From Candidatus Vampirococcus lugosii (lineage in GTDB: Bacteria; Patescibacteriota; Gracilibacteria; Absconditabacterales; Absconditicoccaceae): a stretch of DNA of 22,680 nt. The stretch covers positions 1 to 22,680 of the forward strand of contig NZ_JAEDAM010000013.1 in NCBI RefSeq assembly GCF_018420025.1, given 5' to 3'. Shown piece by piece: positions 6,912 to 19,504 of this stretch. Below the pieces are notes generated by a model. The model ran no database searches, had not been told where the DNA came from, and saw only the letters and a list, made by a program, of their open reading frames with translations. A program made the position numbers and the translations under genes. How positions within the stretch are numbered: position 1 is the stretch's first letter; each line of letters begins with the position of its first letter.

Positions 6912-6919
6912 TTGTGCGA
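6911..6919. repeat. Left arm of a 9-nt inverted repeat (GTTGTGCGA) bracketing the R-M cassette
   Basis: GTTGTGCGA at 6911-6919 starts on the last base of the xthA stop codon. Its exact reverse complement TCGCACAAC lies at 9245-9253. Both are G+C-rich words in a very AT-rich background. Confidence 0.35.
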
Positions 6920-7019
6920 CATATTTTTAAATATTTTTTCTCAAATAGAAATTTTGTTAAAGAATTTAAAAAAGGAATGGAATTTTTATCTTTTTATTTT
7001 AATTAGGGGTTAAGCGGAT

Positions 7020-7048
7020 ATTTTTTGCTCCAAGTATTCGCAAAAAAT
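7020..7048 (+). promoter_or_regulatory. Perfect 9-bp hairpin/palindrome upstream of the methyltransferase (possible xthA terminator or cassette operator)
   Basis: ATTTTTTGC (7020-7028), an 11-nt loop, then GCAAAAAAT (7040-7048), followed by a T-rich tract (gtttatttatttt). It lies about 85 nt upstream of the M start and about 110 nt downstream of the xthA stop. Confidence 0.25.
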
Positions 7049-7133
7049 GTTTATTTATTTTAAATGTAGAAAATTTTTAAGAAATTGTTATATATAGACA
7101 TAAGAATATTTAATCATTCAAACTAAAAAAGTT

Positions 7134-8081
7134 ATGAAATTTATTGATTTATTTGCAGGAATTGGAGGAATTAAAATAGCATTGGAAAATGCTGGTTTTC
7201 AGTGTGTTTTCTCTAATGATATTGATAATTATTGTAAAATAACTTTTGATATAAATTTTTCAGAAATATTTGAAATAGAAAAACAAATGTTTTTAGGTGA
7301 TATAAATAAAATATCAACTCAAAAAATTCCAGATTTTGACCTTTTATGTGGAGGTTTTCCTTGTCAACCTTTTTCTGTTGCAGGTTATAGACAAGGTTTT
7401 AAAGATGAAAAAGGTAGAGGTAATGTTTTTTTTGATATTATAAGAATATTAAAAGATAAAAAACCTAAAGCATTTTTATTAGAAAATGTAAAAAATTTAA
7501 AATCACATGATAAAGGAAATACAATAAAAGTTATTTATGAAGAATTGGAAAAACTTGGATATAAAGTTATTGATAAAGTTATGAATGCAATGGAATATGG
7601 TAATATTCCACAAAACAGAGAAAGAATTTATATTGTTGGTTTTTTAGATCAAAAATCTTTTAATAACTTTAAATTTCCTACAAAGATACCTCTTGAAAAA
7701 AATATTCACGATTGTTTAGAAAAAAATATCGATAAAAAGTATTATTATAATGAAAAACCACTATATAAAAAAATAAAAAATGATATTACAAAAAAAGATA
7801 CTGTTTATCAGTGGAGAAGAAAATATGTTAGAGAAAATAAAAATGGTGTTTGCCCTACTTTAACAGCAAATATGGGTATGGGGGGGCATAATGTTCCAAT
7901 AATTTTAGATGATAATGGAATTAGAAAATTAACACCAAGAGAATGTGCAAATTTTCAAGGTTTTCCTGATAATTATATTTTGCCTAAAATTGCTGATTCT
8001 CAGCTTTATAAACAGTTTGGAAATTCTGTTGTAATTCCAGTAGTACAAAGAATTGCTGAAAATATGAAAAAGGCTTTATAA
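7134..8081 (+). CDS. DNA (cytosine-5)-methyltransferase, Type II R-M modification subunit
   Basis: All canonical C5-MTase motifs are present: I FIDLFAGIGG, IV GGFPCQPFSVAG, VI ENVKNL, VIII QNRERIYIVGF, IX RKLTPRECANFQGFP, X QFGNSVVIPV. The TRD region is ...CPTLTANMGMGGHNVPII. The ORF is intact in the standard code. It has 22 Gly, none encoded by TGA. Stop is TAA. Confidence 0.93.
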   Translation: MKFIDLFAGIGGIKIALENAGFQCVFSNDIDNYCKITFDINFSEIFEIEKQMFLGDINKISTQKIPDFDLLCGGFPCQPFSVAGYRQGFKDEKGRGNVFFDIIRILKDKKPKAFLLENVKNLKSHDKGNTIKVIYEELEKLGYKVIDKVMNAMEYGNIPQNRERIYIVGFLDQKSFNNFKFPTKIPLEKNIHDCLEKNIDKKYYYNEKPLYKKIKNDITKKDTVYQWRRKYVRENKNGVCPTLTANMGMGGHNVPIILDDNGIRKLTPRECANFQGFPDNYILPKIADSQLYKQFGNSVVIPVVQRIAENMKKAL

Positions 8082-8106
8082 ATTTACTGTTTAATAATAT
8101 AAAAAT

Positions 8107-9168
8107 ATGAATTATTATAAATTAACATTAGAAGACTTTAAAAGAGTATTTGAGTTTGGAACAAATTATTACATTGATCCATCTAAAAATACTACAGGTA
8201 GAACAACAGGAGAACCAAGAGGGCTCGGTGCTATTCTTGATGCATTTACTTTAGGTAAATTGACAGAAATTGGAGTTGAAAAAATTTTATGGGAACATAA
8301 TAATCATAAAAAATATATTTTAGATTTTGATATAAAATCTAATTCACAAGTGAAAGATGAACCAGATATTATACAAATAAATGAAAGTCAAATAAGCAGA
8401 GAACCTAATATTTTTATTGAAATTAAAAATACTTCTGACAACGATCGTTGGATAGGTTTAACTGAAGAACAATTTAACACAATAAAAAGAAGTGCTGAAA
8501 ATAGAAAAATATATATGATCTATGCTTCGATTCATTCTGATACTATTGAAAACAATCCAAAAACAACAGATTTGACAGGAATGTTTTTTAAAGAAATTGA
8601 AGATCAAAATAAAAGTGTTATTTTTCAAAAATTTGCTAGTTTAAATGCAAAATGCAAAATTGAATTTATAATTTCTTCAGATGATTTAATAAATTTTGCA
8701 TTTCCTTTTGAAAGAGGAATGAATATGTATGAAACAAATCTTTTTGAAGAGAAAAAGATAACCTCTTTTTATTCACAAGGAGGAACAAAAATCAGAAAAG
8801 ATATTTTGAATATTAAAGAATTTAATAAATTTAATGGCATAAAAAAATTAGAAATATCTAACGGGATTCTTATAGAAAAAAAAGAAATTTCAGAATTTGA
8901 AATAAAAGGTGATTTTAAACTAATTACAAAAAAGAAAAAAACTTATATTGAATGTCTTTCTGATGTATTTATTAAAAATGAAATATTTGGTAAATTCCAA
9001 TTGAAAAGTAAAAAGTTTTATAGTTTTAATTTAGCGACAGTTGGAAGAGATCCTAAATTAAAAAGAAATAATTTATTTATTGCGAAAAATAGAATTTATC
9101 AACTTATAGATGATCAATCAATTAGAAATCCACAAGATATATTAGTAGAAATTGCAAATAATATTTAA
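8107..9168 (+). CDS. Putative Type II restriction endonuclease (PD-ExK nuclease core plus an uncharacterised C-terminal half)
   Basis: It starts 25 nt downstream of the MTase on the same strand. It contains a candidate PD-(D/E)xK catalytic motif: ...KDEPDIIQINESQISREPNIFIEIKNT (PD ... EIK). I recognise no other family. 17 Gly, none TGA. Stop is TAA. Confidence 0.6.
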   Translation: MNYYKLTLEDFKRVFEFGTNYYIDPSKNTTGRTTGEPRGLGAILDAFTLGKLTEIGVEKILWEHNNHKKYILDFDIKSNSQVKDEPDIIQINESQISREPNIFIEIKNTSDNDRWIGLTEEQFNTIKRSAENRKIYMIYASIHSDTIENNPKTTDLTGMFFKEIEDQNKSVIFQKFASLNAKCKIEFIISSDDLINFAFPFERGMNMYETNLFEEKKITSFYSQGGTKIRKDILNIKEFNKFNGIKKLEISNGILIEKKEISEFEIKGDFKLITKKKKTYIECLSDVFIKNEIFGKFQLKSKKFYSFNLATVGRDPKLKRNNLFIAKNRIYQLIDDQSIRNPQDILVEIANNI

Positions 9169-9189
9169 AATAAGGTGTTTTTCTTTTTT

Positions 9190-9262
9190 CAAGAGGGGTT
9201 AGTTTTCGGGATCGTTGCACTTTCGCTCCTAATGTCGCTCACCCTCGCACAACAGCATATAT
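9190..9262. other. Anomalously GC-rich patch immediately 3' of the R gene (foreign-DNA relic, structured RNA or small-peptide ORF)
   Basis: caagaggggttagttttcgggatcgttgcactttcgctcctaatgtcgctcaccctcgcacaacagc is far more G+C-rich than anything else non-coding in the window. It contains the right arm of the inverted repeat (9245-9253), the AGGGGTTA direct repeat (9194-9201; the other copy is at 7005-7012) and a TCGCTC...TCGCTC internal repeat. Confidence 0.5.
9245..9253. repeat. Right arm of the 9-nt inverted repeat (TCGCACAAC)
   Basis: Exact reverse complement of 6911-6919. It lies 77 nt after the R-gene stop and 72 nt before the dedA-like start. Confidence 0.35.
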
Positions 9263-9324: not shown

Positions 9325-9892
9325 ATGAAAAAAATTTATAAAAATTTACTTTTTTTTATCTTATTAATTTTATTTTGTATTTTTTTGTATATAATTTATT
9401 TGTTATGACCAGAAAATATAGTAAATTATATATGAGTTCAAAATACATATTTATTTATTTTTATATATTGACTTATAGCATGAGTTTTCTTTTTGACTGC
9501 AACAAGTTTTTATATAAGTTTAGGAACATTTGTAATTTGATGAGCTAATTTATATTTACTTGCTTTTATTGCTTCTTTTAGTTTGACATTATGAGATACA
9601 CTTTTTTATTTTTTTTGAAAAAAATCTAGAAAATTATCAAAAGAATCAAATTTTAACAAAAAAATTGAAAAATTCACTAATCGAATAAAAAATAAATCAG
9701 ATACTATTATATTTATGTTTATATTTTTTTATTGGAGTTTTTTTGCCTTTACCAAATGATATACCTTGATATGCTTTAGGTTTATTAAATTACCCTTTGA
9801 AAAAAATAATATTTGCAATATTTTTTTGAAATTTTGTTTATTGTATAATAATATGATTGCTTGCTATTAATTGATTTATGAAATTAACTTAA
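9325..9892 (+). CDS. DedA/VTT (TVP38/SNARE-associated)-like membrane protein with an apparent +1 frameshift in a T7 run
   Basis: The frame from ATG 9325 gives ...GANLYLLAFIASFSLTLGDTLFYFFGKKSRKL... (DedA-like G..lGD...Y..G). The family-like C-terminus IGVFLPLPNDIPGYALGLLNYPLKKIIFAIFFGNFVY...* is in the next frame, from 9731 to TAA at 9890-9892. The switch point is the T7 run at 9724-9730. The unshifted frame reads on to 9870 with non-family-like sequence. Confidence 0.5.
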
Positions 9893-9896
9893 AAAT

Positions 9897-10934
9897 TTAA
9901 CATATACTTTCAGGTGCCCAATCTATTTTGAAACCTTTTTTTTGTATATTTAATTTTGAATAAATTATTTCCATAAATTCTCTCAAATTCTCTCATTTTA
10001 GTATAATATTATATCTATATTTTCAAAACATTTTGTATATCATAGCTGGTGTAGAATATATTTCTATATCTTCTGCTCAATATTTTTTTTTCAAATATAA
10101 TATTTCTTTATATAATAAATCTACTTTTTTGAATAATTTTTCTTCAATTTCATCTTTGTATAATATACTACATATTTGAGTATATGGAGGATATGTAAAA
10201 TCTTTTCTAAATTTTAATTCTTCTTTTTTGAAATTTTCAAAATCTAATCTTATTCAATTTATAATACTATGATTTTCAGGATTAAATGTTTGTATGAAAA
10301 AATTTTTGGAATTTAAATTATTTATTCAATCATAAATAAATAAGAAATTTTTGTAATTTGAATTGTAATCTGGAATATTTAGTCAAATATCTGCATTCAA
10401 AAAAATTATTGCATCAAAATCTATATTTTTACTATCAATTAATGTTGATGTTCATATTATAATATTTATATTTTTTATTTCTTTTTTGCTTTTTATTGAT
10501 TTATTTATAGAATTTGTATGTTCATTTTGTAATATTTTGCTTTTTACTCAATAATTATCTTCCAATAATTTTTGAATTTTTTCCGTTCAATATCAATATT
10601 TATTTATTTGTTTCGATCAGCAATTACTGCAATTTTCTATATTATTATAACTTGTTTTGCATATATGACATAATCAAAAAAAAGATCAATTTTGATCTAG
10701 ATGATATGTTATTGCTACATCGCAATTTTTACATTTGGGTACAAATCAACAATTATTACATATAGTTCAAGAGCTATGTCATTTTTTATTTACTATAATA
10801 GCAATTTTTCAATTATTTTTGCTAAATTTATTAATAGCTTTGTTTGCTATCTCAGAAATTACTTTATTATTTTCTTTGGTCATATCTATCAAAAAACATT
10901 TTTTATTATTTTTTTCTATAAGTTCATAATTCAT
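9897..10934 (-). CDS. priA: Primosomal protein N' (PriA) homolog, C-terminal half only
   Basis: The minus-strand translation (TGA=Gly) shows the PriA Cys-rich zinc region: ...IIVNKKGHSSGTICNNCGFVPKCKNCDVAITYHLDQNGSFFGLCHICKTSYNNIENCSNCGSKQINKYGYGTEKIQKLL. Helicase-lobe-2 and C-terminal-domain-like sequence follows (IIIGTSTL..., FRKDFTYPPYTQ). The first ATG is at 10934 and an in-frame stop lies about 55 nt upstream. No Walker A/DExH lobe is encoded. The three plus-strand track ORFs at 10514-10976 are antisense artefacts. Confidence 0.7.
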
Positions 10935-11113
10935 ATTGCAAAAATTAATTATATTATTAAATATATGTTTATATAATGATTTATTTTTTTATATAAATAG
11001 AATTTTTATCTTTTACTAAATTTCTTACAAAATAGTATTTTGTGTTGTAATATAATAAATAAAGTATATACTATATAAAGTATATATTTTATTTTATTAT
11101 AATATATTTATAT

Positions 11114-11389
11114 ATGGAAAATATGACAGAAAGATTTGATTGTACAAAAAATGGAGAAAGTGAATTAATTAAATCAACTAAGAATAATATTTTAAAATTA
11201 TTTAATTCAGATTTAGAAGCTATAAGATATATTGATGAAGAATTACAAATATTATATGATGAAGTTTATTTAAGAGTTTCTAGGTGAATGTGAAATTTAC
11301 ATGAAGAAGAAAAAGAAAGAGTTGAAAAAGTTAATAAAGAAGTTAATAAATTAAGAAAAGTAAAAGCCGAGATTATGAAAAATAATTAA
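11114..11389 (+). CDS. Small hypothetical protein (91 aa, coiled-coil-like C-terminus)
   Basis: ATG at 11114 and TAA at 11387-11389. It contains two in-frame tga (..VSR-G-M-G-NLHEEE..), so it is absent from the 60-aa track. I recognise no family. Confidence 0.4.
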
Positions 11390-11618
11390 TTTATATAAAA
11401 AACTTCAAATCATAACTTTTATTTTTCTTAATTTAAACACCAAGATTTAGATAAGTTTTTTATCAATAAGTTTTTGATTTATACGAATTTCAATTTATTT
11501 TTGTCTACTACTGACAATTTAATGTTGTTTGCATATTTTAAACAATTTGTACTTGAAATATGTGTTTTTTTTCTTATTAGTTAATAACTTCTAATGTATC
11601 TAGAAATAGAGGTTTAAA

Positions 11619-11870
11619 ATGACTGAAGAAGATATGCTTATTAGATGTCCTGATGGGCTCACAAGAAGATTTCTTATTGTTAAAGAAAAAGGAGTATCTG
11701 ATATAGAGTATATAGTATATGAACGGGATTATTTTTGTAACAAAAAGATAGGTAAGGTCGAAAATAGCGAATCCGTTCCTGAAGTTATTAGAAGTTATTA
11801 CCATGAATGATTGTTAAATAGCTTTCATTCTTGTTTAGCCAAGGATTATTTATCCTTGGTTTTTTTATAA
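11619..11870 (+). CDS. Small orphan ORF (63 aa to the TGA at 11808; 83 aa to TAA at 11868 if TGA=Gly)
   Basis: AGAGG at 11608-11612 lies 6 nt before the ATG. Local G+C is visibly higher than in flanking DNA. All three Gly are GGN. The single TGA lies 28 nt before an intrinsic-terminator hairpin. In code 25 the frame reads through that hairpin. Confidence 0.45.
11839..11866 (+). terminator. Rho-independent terminator
   Basis: CCAAGGAT (11839-11846), loop tattt, ATCCTTGG (11852-11859), then T7 (11860-11866). Perfect 8-bp stem with G/C pairs. Confidence 0.65.
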
Positions 11871-12032
11871 ATTATTTTTTATAATATACTAAAACTTATA
11901 AAAAAGTTGATAAAATTTTGGAAATTATAAAACAAGATTTTTATAATCAAAAAAAATCTATAATAATAAAACTAATTATATGTTTTAGGGATTGTATAGA
12001 TTTTATTTTAATATTTGTAATATATAAAATAT

Positions 12033-12814: not shown

Positions 12815-14263
12815 TTAAATTAACTTAAGTCATTCTTTTTTTATTTTATTGACCATTTCTTCATTTTTTATTTGAGCTTGAGCATTTTTGTTAGTGGTAA
12901 TATTTACTGTTTCATCTCAAGATTTTAATGTAATATCAGTGTTTTTCATACTAATATCAAAATTTATCATTATAATTTCTTTTTTTGATTTTTTTATTAT
13001 TTCAAAATCTATTTCTTTATTTCATATTGAAGAGATATTTTCATTATTAATTTCTTTACTTGTTCTTACAGATATACTTAATCAAATCATTTTTTCTAAT
13101 TCATTTATTTTTGCTCATTGTTTTCATATTATTGATCATTTATTTTTTTCATCTACAATAATTTTTATATTATTTTGTCATTCTGCTTCAATTTTTATAG
13201 GAAAATTGTATTGTTTTTCCAATAGATTTTGTAAATATCTAATTCAATATTTTATAAGTCATCAAAATGATTTATCCTTTTTTTCTTTTGAATTATTTAT
13301 TTCATCTATAGGCATTACAACAACTTCTTCTCAATAACTATACATTTCATATTCAAGATTTCAAGTTATGAAATTATATATTTGTATTACAGGTCTTGTT
13401 AAATCAGCAGATTCCATTCATTCAGGTGTCTTTACAGTATGTTGAAGTGTAAGAATTTTTTCAGGTTTACCTCATTTTATAAATATTACAGTATCTATAA
13501 CTTGTGGTATTATTCACATCTCTATATTTCATAAAAATCTCTGTATACTATCAACAGCATTCATAGCATGTATTACACCAATTAATCAAATTCATGTAAG
13601 TCTAAGATCTTTAAATAGTTGAAAATCATCAGCATTTCTTATCTCATCATATACCGTATAATCTGGTCTAGAAAGTAATAATATATCTCTTATTTCACTA
13701 TGAGGGGCATAAGAAAAACTATATTGAGTAACTTCATCTGGAACTAATAAATCTCTAGGAGATTCTATAGTTTTTATTATATTATCATTTTTTGTATACA
13801 TTTCAACAAGAGCTTGTGCAAAAGTTGTTTTACCTTGTCAAGGAGAACCACTTAATAAAATTCATTGAGAATTATTTTTTAATCTTTCCAATAAATTATT
13901 ATTTAATTCATAATCTTCAATTGATAATTTTTTTGTAGGTTTAACGACAGTTATTTCTATTCAATCAGATAGAGGAGGTAGTACTATTACTATTCTATAA
14001 GGTCATGCTTGTATTACTTTTGACATATTTTTATCAATTTCCAAAAAACAATCATCATATTGATCTATTTCTTTGTATAATTCATCAATAATATTATTTA
14101 AATAGTTTCTACTAACTTTTTTTTCCAATTTTTCAGATTCCCATCATCATGGCAATCATCTTTTTTTAAATATATTCATTCACTCTTTTAAATGTACAGA
14201 CATAGTATCAGTATCAAAAAATTCATCCATTACTGATTTATGTTTTGACTTAATTATTTCCAT
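12815..14263 (-). CDS. PilT-family (secretion/twitching-type) ATPase with a C-terminal KH domain (COG1855-like), lacking an obvious N-terminal PIN domain
   Basis: Walker A is ILLSGSPGQGKTTFAQAL, with tga (13838-13840) as the invariant Gly. Walker B-like region is DYTVYDEIRNADDF, followed by GLIGVIHA. The C-terminal KH motif is IKIIVDEKNKGSIIGKQGAKINELEKMIGLSISV (GxxG). The track ORF 13592..13801 is an in-frame fragment. The track ORF 12888..13337(+) is antisense. Confidence 0.8.
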
Positions 14264-16896: not shown

Positions 16897-17856
16897 ATGA
16901 ATAGAGGTGAATTAGTTGAGTCTTTACAAGATAATAGCAAAAATTGTATTATAGCATTAAATAATGAATTATGATTTGATTTTGATAAAGTGAAAAATCA
17001 AATTATAGAATTAAATGATACAATATCTAATTATACTTTATATGATTTGGATGATAGCTCATTTTTTTTGGTTGATGTTAAAGTAAAAGAAATATTAAAT
17101 ACTATACCTTATAATAAAAAACAGATATTTTTTGAACATTTTTATGAAAATCAATGATTTGATTCTGTTGAAAAATGATTTTCTTATATGCAAAATATAT
17201 TTGATAATCTTGAACAAATTTATAATATACAAATTGATAAATATAACTCGTATTTAAATTCTGTAAAAGATAATGCTTTCTTATGAAGTAAAGTTTGTAA
17301 ATTAAGATGACCTATATTGACAAATTCATTAAGTAATATTGAAAATAATTTGAAAGATGCTAAATTAACATTATCTAGATTGTTATGTAATGATACTAAT
17401 TTATATTTACATTATTTCTTGTTTTCTCCTCAAGCTAATATTTTTAAAAGATTTAGTAAAATATTTTCTGAAACAAATACTAATTTTAGTAGATGATTTA
17501 ATTCTACTATGTCAGTTTTTGAAAAATATAGAAGTAAAATATCTTTATGATTAGAAATGGCAGAAGTATCAGATTTTAATTTAGATGAAAATATTGATTT
17601 TACTTCAAATAGAATTAAAGAGAAATTAAATTCATTAGAATTTTTTGTTCAACTTTTTAGAATGTTATTAATATTTAGATTAGGTTCATCAAATCATATT
17701 AATAAGTACAATAAAAAAGTTTTGGATAAATATTTTGATATGTATATATCTTGAAATATTTGTTGTGATGAAAATACTGATTTACTTGTATATAATTTTT
17801 TTTGGAACATTATATTATCTTATATGAGAAAATGATTTTTGAAATGAAATATTTAA
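16897..17856 (+). CDS. Hypothetical soluble protein (319 aa), possibly the N-terminal part of the downstream HD-GYP protein
   Basis: ATG is 25 nt after the previous stop. The track ORF 17557..17754 is an in-frame fragment. The frame ends at TAA 17854-17856. Removing one T from the T5 run at 17836-17840 would fuse it in frame to the next gene. Confidence 0.5.
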
Positions 17857-19504
17857 TAATGCATTGGAAGTTGAGCTTAAAGAAGATAATCATACAAATG
17901 AAAATAGTGAACTTGATCAAAATGATGAAAATAATTCTATATCTGAAAAAGATAAACAAATATTTGAATCTGATAAAAATATAGAATATATTAGAGAAAT
18001 TATAATTAGAAATAAATATTATTATATGTTGCTTGATGTAGCATCAAAAATACAATACAATTTGTTCTGTATATCAACAAATTTAGATTTAATAGATTTG
18101 GATCAATTGCAAGAAAATATAAGTTCTTTAAAATCTGAAATAGATAAATTATTAGGAGATATATTTAAAAATATTCCATTAGATTTGTTTAATTATTTAA
18201 AAACTTTATGTAATACTATTTTAAAAGTATATATTTCTGGTGATTTATATGATACTTTGTCAGATGAAAATAAAAATGTTGAAGGAATTTTATGAGATAT
18301 TTTGGATGAAAAATCATCAATTCCAAAAACTTCTATTTTAGTTTTATCTATAATAATATCATTGTCTTTCTATATTAAACAATTATATAATGAATTAGTG
18401 AATTTATCTTGAATGGATTTTGAAACTTATGAAATTGATTTAAGTTCTTATAAAAAAATTTTTGATAAAAAAACTATAGAAGTTATTAAAAAAATTGATA
18501 CTGTTGAATCAAAAAATTTTTTGTATTTGTACAAAAATGTTATAGATATAAAAAATAAAGCTTGTTTTTTTAATAAATTAATTATTTTTAATAAAACTCC
18601 TAAATCAAATTTTGAAATAACAAAATATTTGACAAGTAATATATCAAAATTACATCCATGATGAGTTGAATTTTTTAGTTTTCAAAAAATAATGGATAAT
18701 ATTAATAAAAATTGAAATATTAATTTTGCGAATTGAATTGAATTGATGATTAAATTAATAGATGTTTTTGATTTAACTTATAGTCCATGACATAGTAAAA
18801 GAGTATCCAAATTATCTAATATAATATTGGAATTATTATTGGATGATGAAAATTATCATGATAAACGAAACGATGAAATACAAAAAAATATTGAAGAATT
18901 AGAATTAATTTTGGATGATGAAAAATTTGAATGAATAGAGGAAATTATAGATTTATCTGATAATATTGAAAATGATTTTTCAAAATGTATTCATTTATCT
19001 ACACTTTTGCATGATGCAGGAAAATTATGAACCGATTTATTAGTTCTTTCATCTAGAATTAAACTTAATGATGAAGAATTTAAAGAAGTAAGATCTCATC
19101 CTTGAAAATGAGAAGAACTTATTAAATTTTTTACTTGATTAGAGAATATACCAAAATTTATTTATGATGCTACTTTTCATCATGAAAGACCAGATTGAAA
19201 ATGATATCCTTTATGAAACATTTTGGAAGAAATTCCTTTGATTTCAAGAATAATTGCAGTGGCTGATATTATAGATGCAATGTTATGAAAAAGACATTAT
19301 GTATTTGAAGAAAAATCTGTTAAATATGTATATGATGAATTAATTAAAGCTAGTTGAAAACAATTAGATGCTGAAATTGTAGATATAATTACTAAAAATA
19401 AAGATTTTTTCAAAAAACTTTATGAAATTTATAAAGTTAATTTTTGGGATGCACAAATTGAGGCTGAATCATCGTGATTGTTAATGGTTGATAGTTTAAA
19501 TTAA
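17768..19504 (+). CDS. HD-GYP domain protein (cyclic-dinucleotide phosphodiesterase family) with a large uncharacterised N-terminal region; start uncertain
   Basis: The C-terminal domain carries HLSTLLHDAGK and FHHERPDGKGYP (tga at 19196 and 19202 supply both Gly of the GYP motif), then IISRIIAVADIIDAM. The track ORFs 17864..18295 and 18413..18661 are in-frame fragments. The first ATG in frame is 17768, which overlaps the upstream gene by 89 nt. Confidence 0.8.

Follow-up and report, generated by a model that had tools for sequence, protein, structure and literature searches.

A TGA-free Type II restriction-modification cassette in the TGA=Gly genome of Candidatus Vampirococcus lugosii, probably imported from standard-code bacteria

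A methylase-nuclease pair without TGA codons

The 22,680-bp window analyzed here is a contig of Candidatus Vampirococcus lugosii (Absconditabacterales; GC ~20%), and it carries two neighboring genes for a C5 cytosine DNA methyltransferase (M) and a putative PD-(D/E)xK nuclease (R), which together form a predicted Type II restriction-modification (R-M) cassette. Both proteins are 100% identical to NCBI entries of V. lugosii, and an earlier note on this DNA, made from the sequence alone, had named the two genes correctly. UGA encodes glycine in V. lugosii according to the genome paper (PMC8080830). In the window, translation with TGA=Gly restores the canonical Gly-rich motifs in Obg and GlyA, and 21 genes are counted with TGA as a sense codon. 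Under the standard code, only four open reading frames (ORFs) of at least 100 aa remain (7134-8081, 8107-9168, 12888-13337, and 17864-18295). The third lies antisense within a native gene and the fourth is an in-frame part of a native gene, free of TGA, neither being a gene itself, so that only the cassette survives standard-code translation, as the note had stated.

The codon usage of the two genes sets them sharply apart from their surroundings. M contains 0 TGA, 22 GGN, and 1 TGG codons, R contains 0 TGA, 17 GGN, and 2 TGG codons, and each ends with TAA, whereas the neighboring xthA uses TGA at 14 of its 17 glycines and the 19 native genes of the window use TGA for 67-100% of their glycines each (pooled 323/380, 0.85). 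At this native rate the probability of finding no TGA among 39 glycines is 7e-33 (Fisher’s test, 8e-29). Moreover, GGG encodes 4 of the 39 cassette glycines as opposed to 0 of 380 native ones (p=6e-5), and GGA and GGG together make up 51% of the glycines in the cassette and 3% and 0%, respectively, in native genes. Per-gene counting thus reproduced the note’s absence of TGA, its two TAA stops, and its figure for xthA. The description of the cassette as being as AT-rich as its host proved nearly right, with a GC content of 23-24% versus ~20% for the window and a GC content at third codon positions (GC3) of 0.096 versus 0.091. With respect to TGA, the remark that E. coli could express the pair without modification is trivially correct. 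The anomaly is real and statistically overwhelming, and its explanation is ordinary: with a probability that we put at roughly 85%, the segment from ~6916 to 9262 would be a horizontally acquired Type II R-M module from standard-code bacteria. The coordinates of its parts are collected in Table 1.

Table 1. Parts of the cassette and of its immediate borders in the V. lugosii window
Feature	Positions	Strand	Basis or remark
Leader 5' of M	6916-7133	+	218 bp; 88% identical to L016 54-273
Hairpin in the leader, 13-bp stem, ATATTTTTTGC...GCAAAAAAT	7016-7052	+	RNA folding energy -11.3 kcal/mol; z = -2.6
M, C5 cytosine DNA methyltransferase, 315 aa	7134-8081	+	Pfam, TIGR00675, PADLOC, M.HhaI alignment
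M-R spacer, 25 bp	8082-8106	+	M ends at 8081 and R begins at 8107; co-oriented
R, putative PD-(D/E)xK nuclease of an uncharacterized family, 353 aa	8107-9168	+	AlphaFold model, Foldseek, invariant triad
Tail common to L016, left arm of terminator hairpin	9169-9192	+	3' arm absent from the window, z = 0.21
GC-rich patch adjoining the cassette, 74 bp	9189-9262	+	GC 0.49 versus 0.08 in other intergenic DNA

The methyltransferase

The identity of M is supported by matches to Pfam PF00145 (E=1.8e-93), TIGR00675 (346 bits, cut-off 100.65), and PADLOC MTase_II (E=2.6e-125) and a full-length alignment to M.HhaI (E=2e-68). The catalytic motifs FxGxG, PCQ, ENV, QNRER, and GNSV (motifs I, IV, VI, VIII, and X) do not vary across 45 homologues. 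While the catalytic domain aligns well with M.HhaI, the target-recognition segment (residues ~200-260) gives a poor, gapped alignment, and GCGC specificity can therefore not be assumed for M. Within the M family, this segment is invariant, which points to one specificity shared by the family. The window holds 0 GCGC sites versus 1.0 expected, an expectation too small to be informative, and for GCGC and GCNGC alike, too few sites are expected in the window to judge specificity. One further copy offers a lead toward the recognition sequence: at L064 (803-2886; L numbers denote the compared loci), an M with 84% identity to the window M and with the invariant recognition segment of the family stands beside a nuclease of Pfam RE_NgoFVII_C in place of the NOV_C-like R. 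The nuclease partner is swapped here within one methylase family, and the NgoFVII-type nuclease is a lead to a target other than GCGC.

Compared with the HhaI system (PDB 1MHT/10MH family), the cassette shares a full-length M.HhaI-like methylase with all catalytic motifs and a co-oriented nuclease gene directly past M, a linkage kept in dozens of genomes. It differs in the target-recognition segment and in its nuclease, which has no sequence likeness to any solved restriction endonuclease, including R.HhaI and HinP1I.

The nuclease

R was placed by structure and by its catalytic residues. The residues P86-D87...E105-x-K107 are invariant in 46 R homologues, and the AlphaFold model (pLDDT 91.6) was matched by Foldseek to archaeal Hjc resolvases with probabilities of 0.90-0.99 and more weakly to EcoRV, SwaI, and the SPARDA nuclease. 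Against Pfam NOV_C (PF13020), R scores 22.2 bits, at the gathering cut-off of 22.1, and 19 of the 46 homologues reach this family at E<=0.01 (best 5.9e-6). No sequence relative of R was found in the PDB, and no NCBIfam or PADLOC model matched it. R thus has in common with NOV_C/DUF3883 and the Hjc core the invariant PD...ExK triad and the alpha/beta core, but this likeness covers only ~90 of its 353 residues, and R has in addition a large beta-rich C-terminal domain (~180-353) with no known fold relationship. R is a member of an uncharacterized, widespread PD-(D/E)xK restriction-enzyme family that is common in Patescibacteria and directly clonable.

The state of the triad follows the presence of the methylase. 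R genes adjacent to M have an intact triad (EIK) in 45 of 46 loci, whereas in M-less R loci with 9-10 kb of upstream sequence (n=4, two lineages), the catalytic glutamate E105 is replaced; the exception to this pattern, L011, is a short contig. Such co-occurrence would fit a nuclease that is active and can be borne only when its methylase is present. The dN/dS values between the window and its close relative L016 (0.10 for M and 0.20 for R) indicate purifying selection on both genes.

Two kinds of derivative were seen among the relatives of R. At L039 (3889-4941), M is intact and R carries E105K (KIK), which looks like decay of the nuclease beside a methylase that is kept; orphan methylases usually arise by this route. 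The R-like genes without a methylase at L010 (8901-10894), L013, L045, and L046 have their N-terminal 54 residues replaced and the glutamate mutated (FIKIK or FIKII), and the one at L010 adjoins a protein with an Mrr-like restriction-endonuclease C-terminus, as judged by eye. Genes of this type are possibly inactivated or repurposed DNA-binding derivatives.

Distribution of the pair

Homologues of M number in the thousands, the best of them being 72-95% identical and named Moranbacteria, Berkelbacteria, Patescibacteria, Marinimicrobia, and Gammaproteobacteria, and R has 142 homologues. Homologues at 72-95% identity for M and 43-84% for R occur in Moranbacteria, Berkelbacteria, Falkowbacteria, Peribacteria, and metagenome-assembled genomes (MAGs) of Rickettsiales and Gammaproteobacteria. 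As a pair, the two genes occur at 60-95% protein identity in dozens of contigs, mostly of standard-code Patescibacteria and other AT-rich bacteria. Scans gave 34 loci in metagenomes and 14 in species-representative genomes, the latter including Patescibacteria, a complete ‘Gracilibacteria’ chromosome, Peribacteria/Peregrinibacteria, Falkowbacteria, and MAGs of Rickettsiales and Gammaproteobacteria. For this comparison, every copy was translated through TGA and the code of its host was inferred from the flanks only. All 14 species-representative loci are standard code. In viral, phage, and plasmid sets, relatives of M are at most 56% identical and bear generic names.

The pair is constant in its architecture and variable in its surroundings. 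In 30 complete copies, the aligned segments of M and R are separated by 5-88 bp and keep one order, and the two genes presumably form one operon. Between lineages, no homology was found outside the two ORFs and the spacer. An 85%-identical copy is indexed in 63 collection blocks, and in the six of its contigs that were read, the cassette is identical and the flanks differ. Of these contigs (L058-L063), only one has a tyrosine recombinase gene 250 bp upstream of the cassette (L063 1-579). The recombinase neighbor and the varying flanks suggest carriage on an integrative element or in a cassette array in standard-code hosts.

Relatedness and time of arrival

The closest copies of the cassette, L016-L019, come from the four metagenomes ERZ23498639, JGI 3300009008, JGI 3300007511, and SRR8062320 and show 94-95% protein identity, whereas the native neighbor XthA has no relative above 74% identity. 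In a neighbor-joining tree of M and R, the window groups with L016, followed by a copy from a TGA=Trp host and a standard-code copy. The window copy is nested among standard-code copies. A second TGA=Gly lineage stands apart from the window copy in this tree and is not its sister, which argues for independent acquisitions.

Synonymous divergence (dS) between the window and L016 is 0.13-0.20. Of the substitutions, 27 could be assigned to the window branch by polarization, and G>T is not among them. With 16 GGA codons in the cassette, the expected number of GGA>TGA events since the split from L016 would be below one, and the absence of TGA accordingly needs no selection.

Copies under other genetic codes

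Copies in recoded hosts carry TGA as a sense codon. In the independent TGA=Gly lineage of Absconditabacterales (L015, L032, and L034), 3 TGA codons, all at conserved glycines, stand against 32 GGN codons; the flanks have an ORF coverage of 0.00-0.19 under the standard code versus 1.02-1.33 with TGA as sense, and under code 11, the L015 proteins would truncate at residue 21 of M and residue 39 of R. In three other copies (L020, L030, and L037), TGA stands at W115 of R (at least 90% conserved) and at the invariant W227 of M, TGG is depleted, and all tryptophans of the L020 copy are encoded by TGA. The genes flanking L030 and L037 use TGA in the manner of Trp: a neighbor of L030 has 5 TGA, 0 TGG, and 16 GGN codons, and the TGA of the DNPH1-like neighbor of L037 sits at what we take to be a conserved Trp. 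Judged from these codon positions, the hosts of the three copies evidently read TGA as Trp. The copies lie on short environmental contigs of ~26-30% GC (L020 299-2331, L030 201-1994, and L037 1-4820), and candidate hosts are Mollicutes-like bacteria, recoded phages, and a code-4 lineage not yet described. One module thus appears under three codes, each copy gaining TGA in the sense of its host. L042 was considered as a further code-25 (TGA=Gly) copy and rejected, because a frameshift affects the 3' end that contains its sole ‘Gly’ TGA, and TGA seems to be the stop of its M.

TGA is also used as a stop, in 5 of 77 distinct gene copies (four M and one R), and in L008/L009, the next TAA or TAG lies 56 codons past the TGA stop. 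Moreover, a TGA-free gene of another kind was found in a code-25 relative. L055, the closest code-25 relative by XthA (74%), carries a PAS/MCP-signal gene (9643-11229, 528 aa) in which 0 of 26 glycines are TGA (P=2e-15, given a TGA use of 73% among its neighbors) and whose GC content is 38.6% versus 21-34% in the TGA-rich neighbors. This gene is another recent import and shows that freedom from TGA generally marks recent import into code-25 genomes and is not confined to selfish defense modules.

These observations bear directly on the second reading of the earlier note, in which the cassette would be a code-agnostic selfish element kept free of TGA and so translatable under code 11 as well as under code 25. 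In its favor, neither the window copy nor its 95% relative L016 contains a TGA codon, and both stop with TAA, despite a dS of 0.13-0.20, the L015 lineage uses TGA for only 3 of 35 glycines versus ~60% in its host genes, and TGA-free, code-11-compatible phages of Gracilibacteria and Absconditabacteria have been reported (Liu et al., mBio 2023, PMC10746230), a published precedent that favors such an element and at the same time removes its claim to be undescribed. The sense TGA codons of the recoded-host copies (Gly in L015, L032, and L034; Trp in L020, L030, and L037), however, destroy code-11 expression, and the TGA stops, the equally TGA-free and non-selfish PAS/MCP gene, and the lack of G>T changes on the window branch, which leaves zero TGA as the neutral expectation, all speak against maintenance. 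We therefore consider the code-agnostic element very unlikely.

Junctions and non-coding parts

The borders of the cassette were defined by comparison with L016, to which homology starts at 6916, directly past the xthA stop, continues through M and R, and becomes ragged up to ~9262. The leader has a GC content of 0.19 versus 0.08 in other intergenic DNA, and no other lineage compared has homology to it. In its hairpin, the arms are conserved relative to L016 and the loop differs, and the structure may be terminator-like or insulating. Past R, L016 has a complete hairpin with a 17-bp stem (z = -3.3), of which the window keeps one arm. The GC-rich patch contains the 18-mer TTCGGGRTCGTTGCACTT, which is present only there and in the right flank of L016, and has a second short stretch in common with that flank, the homology being ragged. 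The patch is probably un-ameliorated imported non-coding DNA; it does not fold significantly and matched neither Rfam nor tRNAs. No tRNA or known RNA was found at the cassette junctions, and matches in a promoter scan were no more frequent than in shuffles.

An abrupt change of coding style at both ends, together with near-identical cassettes on many short contigs of other metagenomes, is also what an assembly chimera or contamination would produce, with a piece of standard-code DNA wrongly joined into a Vampirococcus contig. The cassette is internal, though, flanked on the same contig by 6.9 kb and 13.4 kb of code-25 genes, and identical M and R each occur on two contigs and in several sources (NCBI, Logan, and UniRef). 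The genome paper (Moreira et al., PMC8080830), moreover, reports a curated assembly without contamination. A chimera is thus barely credible. The same paper counts 126 genes acquired by horizontal gene transfer (HGT) in V. lugosii, one type II restriction enzyme, and eight methylases. Its HGT list contains a ‘DNA methyltransferase’ and a ‘restriction endonuclease’, whose identifiers could not be matched to this locus.

Origin of the cassette

Import from standard-code organisms, the first reading offered by the earlier note, is supported by the distribution of the pair, by its discordance with the native genes, and by GGG usage and non-coding GC. In the mechanism that we propose, M would methylate C5 of cytosine in a short target and R would cut unmethylated copies of that target, so that the pair would guard against phage and other foreign DNA and behave as an addictive selfish unit. 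The source pool would be standard-code AT-rich bacteria, chiefly Patescibacteria, in which the pair circulates, and other Patescibacteria are the most likely donor pool. All glycines would have arrived as GGN, because TGA cannot be a sense codon in a standard-code genome; import would have needed no adaptation, because a TGA=Gly host reads GGN genes correctly; and the residence may have been too short for GGA-to-TGA substitutions to build up. The donor and the direction and date of the transfer, like the activities of the two enzymes, are what we infer.

Several points weigh against this import. Among the viral contigs of IMG/VR, the phages of GenBank, and the plasmids of PLSDB, no homologue of R and hence no plasmid or phage vector was found. 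The window contains no integrase or recombinase, a search for flanking direct or inverted repeats and a target-site duplication gave only AT-rich chance matches, and no clean empty site was found through relatives of XthA, synteny around xthA not being conserved there. L016-L019 lie on contigs of at most 2.6 kb, and the short flanks of L016 contain no ORF that would reveal the code of its host, which leaves donor and date loosely constrained. The native codon statistics describe the 19 genes of the 22.7-kb window. Finally, the codon usage of the cassette outside glycine is host-like in GC3, which could suggest long residence. As proof of long residence, a host-like GC3 was rejected: L016 and several standard-code copies have GC3 values of 0.08-0.13.

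Long residence is the core of another explanation, in which the pair has avoided TGA for the sake of expression, for example with rare GGN codons throttling a toxic nuclease. The abundance in the cassette of GGA and GGG, rare as these are natively, would slow translation in this manner, and the host-like codon usage apart from glycine agrees with it. The methylase, however, is not toxic and lacks TGA just as the nuclease does, both genes contain TGA in the other code-25 lineage, and the 95% copies elsewhere, set against the 74% of the neighboring native gene, and the foreign GC of the ends argue against long residence. This explanation appears highly improbable.

A variant that combines import with maintenance was also weighed, in which the clade of the window and L016 is kept TGA-free by continuing gene flow, or by selection at the level of lineages, across the border that separates code-25 from standard-code hosts. 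Because only TGA-free copies can be re-exported, the circulating R-M population would be enriched for code-neutral alleles. If this were true, TGA-bearing copies such as L015 would be evolutionary dead ends, and R-M modules could serve to measure traffic in both directions across the genetic-code barrier. We regard this variant as very unlikely.

Comparison with known cases

Under simple import from standard-code bacteria, the locus can be set beside the amelioration model of Lawrence and Ochman, in which foreign genes are said to arrive with the codon usage of the donor and to drift toward that of the host. Graded states are seen here as well, from 0 TGA in V. lugosii through 3/35 in the other Absconditabacterales to all Trp as TGA in L020. 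The difference from classical amelioration is that the character is a reassigned stop codon instead of GC, which makes the signal near-binary and easily read. A zero TGA count is accordingly a near-binary marker of recent import in TGA=Gly genomes, and a second, unrelated gene shows it. The locus provides a clean quantitative example of a TGA=Gly genome freely importing standard-code genes, and the module under three codes presents a natural experiment on the speed with which a reassigned codon invades foreign genes. The code barrier is one-way in this respect, import being easy and re-export being lost after the first TGA. None of these results overturns current understanding.

The phages of Liu et al. 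share with the cassette that they are mobile DNA of TGA=Gly hosts without in-frame TGA and readable in both codes. They differ in being whole phage genomes, for which compatibility was proposed to broaden the host range, whereas the cassette is a two-gene chromosomal module whose relatives in recoded hosts gain sense TGA instead of retaining the TGA-free state.

Other features of the window

Elsewhere in the window, a stretch of ~1.05 kb (10989-12032) lacks ORFs of 100 aa or more on both strands, even with TGA as sense, its longest minus-strand piece being 78 aa; its GC content of 19% is coding-like. It adjoins a priA-like gene on the minus strand (9897-10934, 345 aa) that comprises the zinc-finger and C-terminal half only (PriA_C), the N-terminal helicase half of which seems to be missing or degraded. 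In addition, the code-25 ORFs at 16897-17856 and 17768-19504 overlap by 89 bp (17768-17856) if the first ATG is taken as the start, and the true start of the second ORF is probably further downstream.

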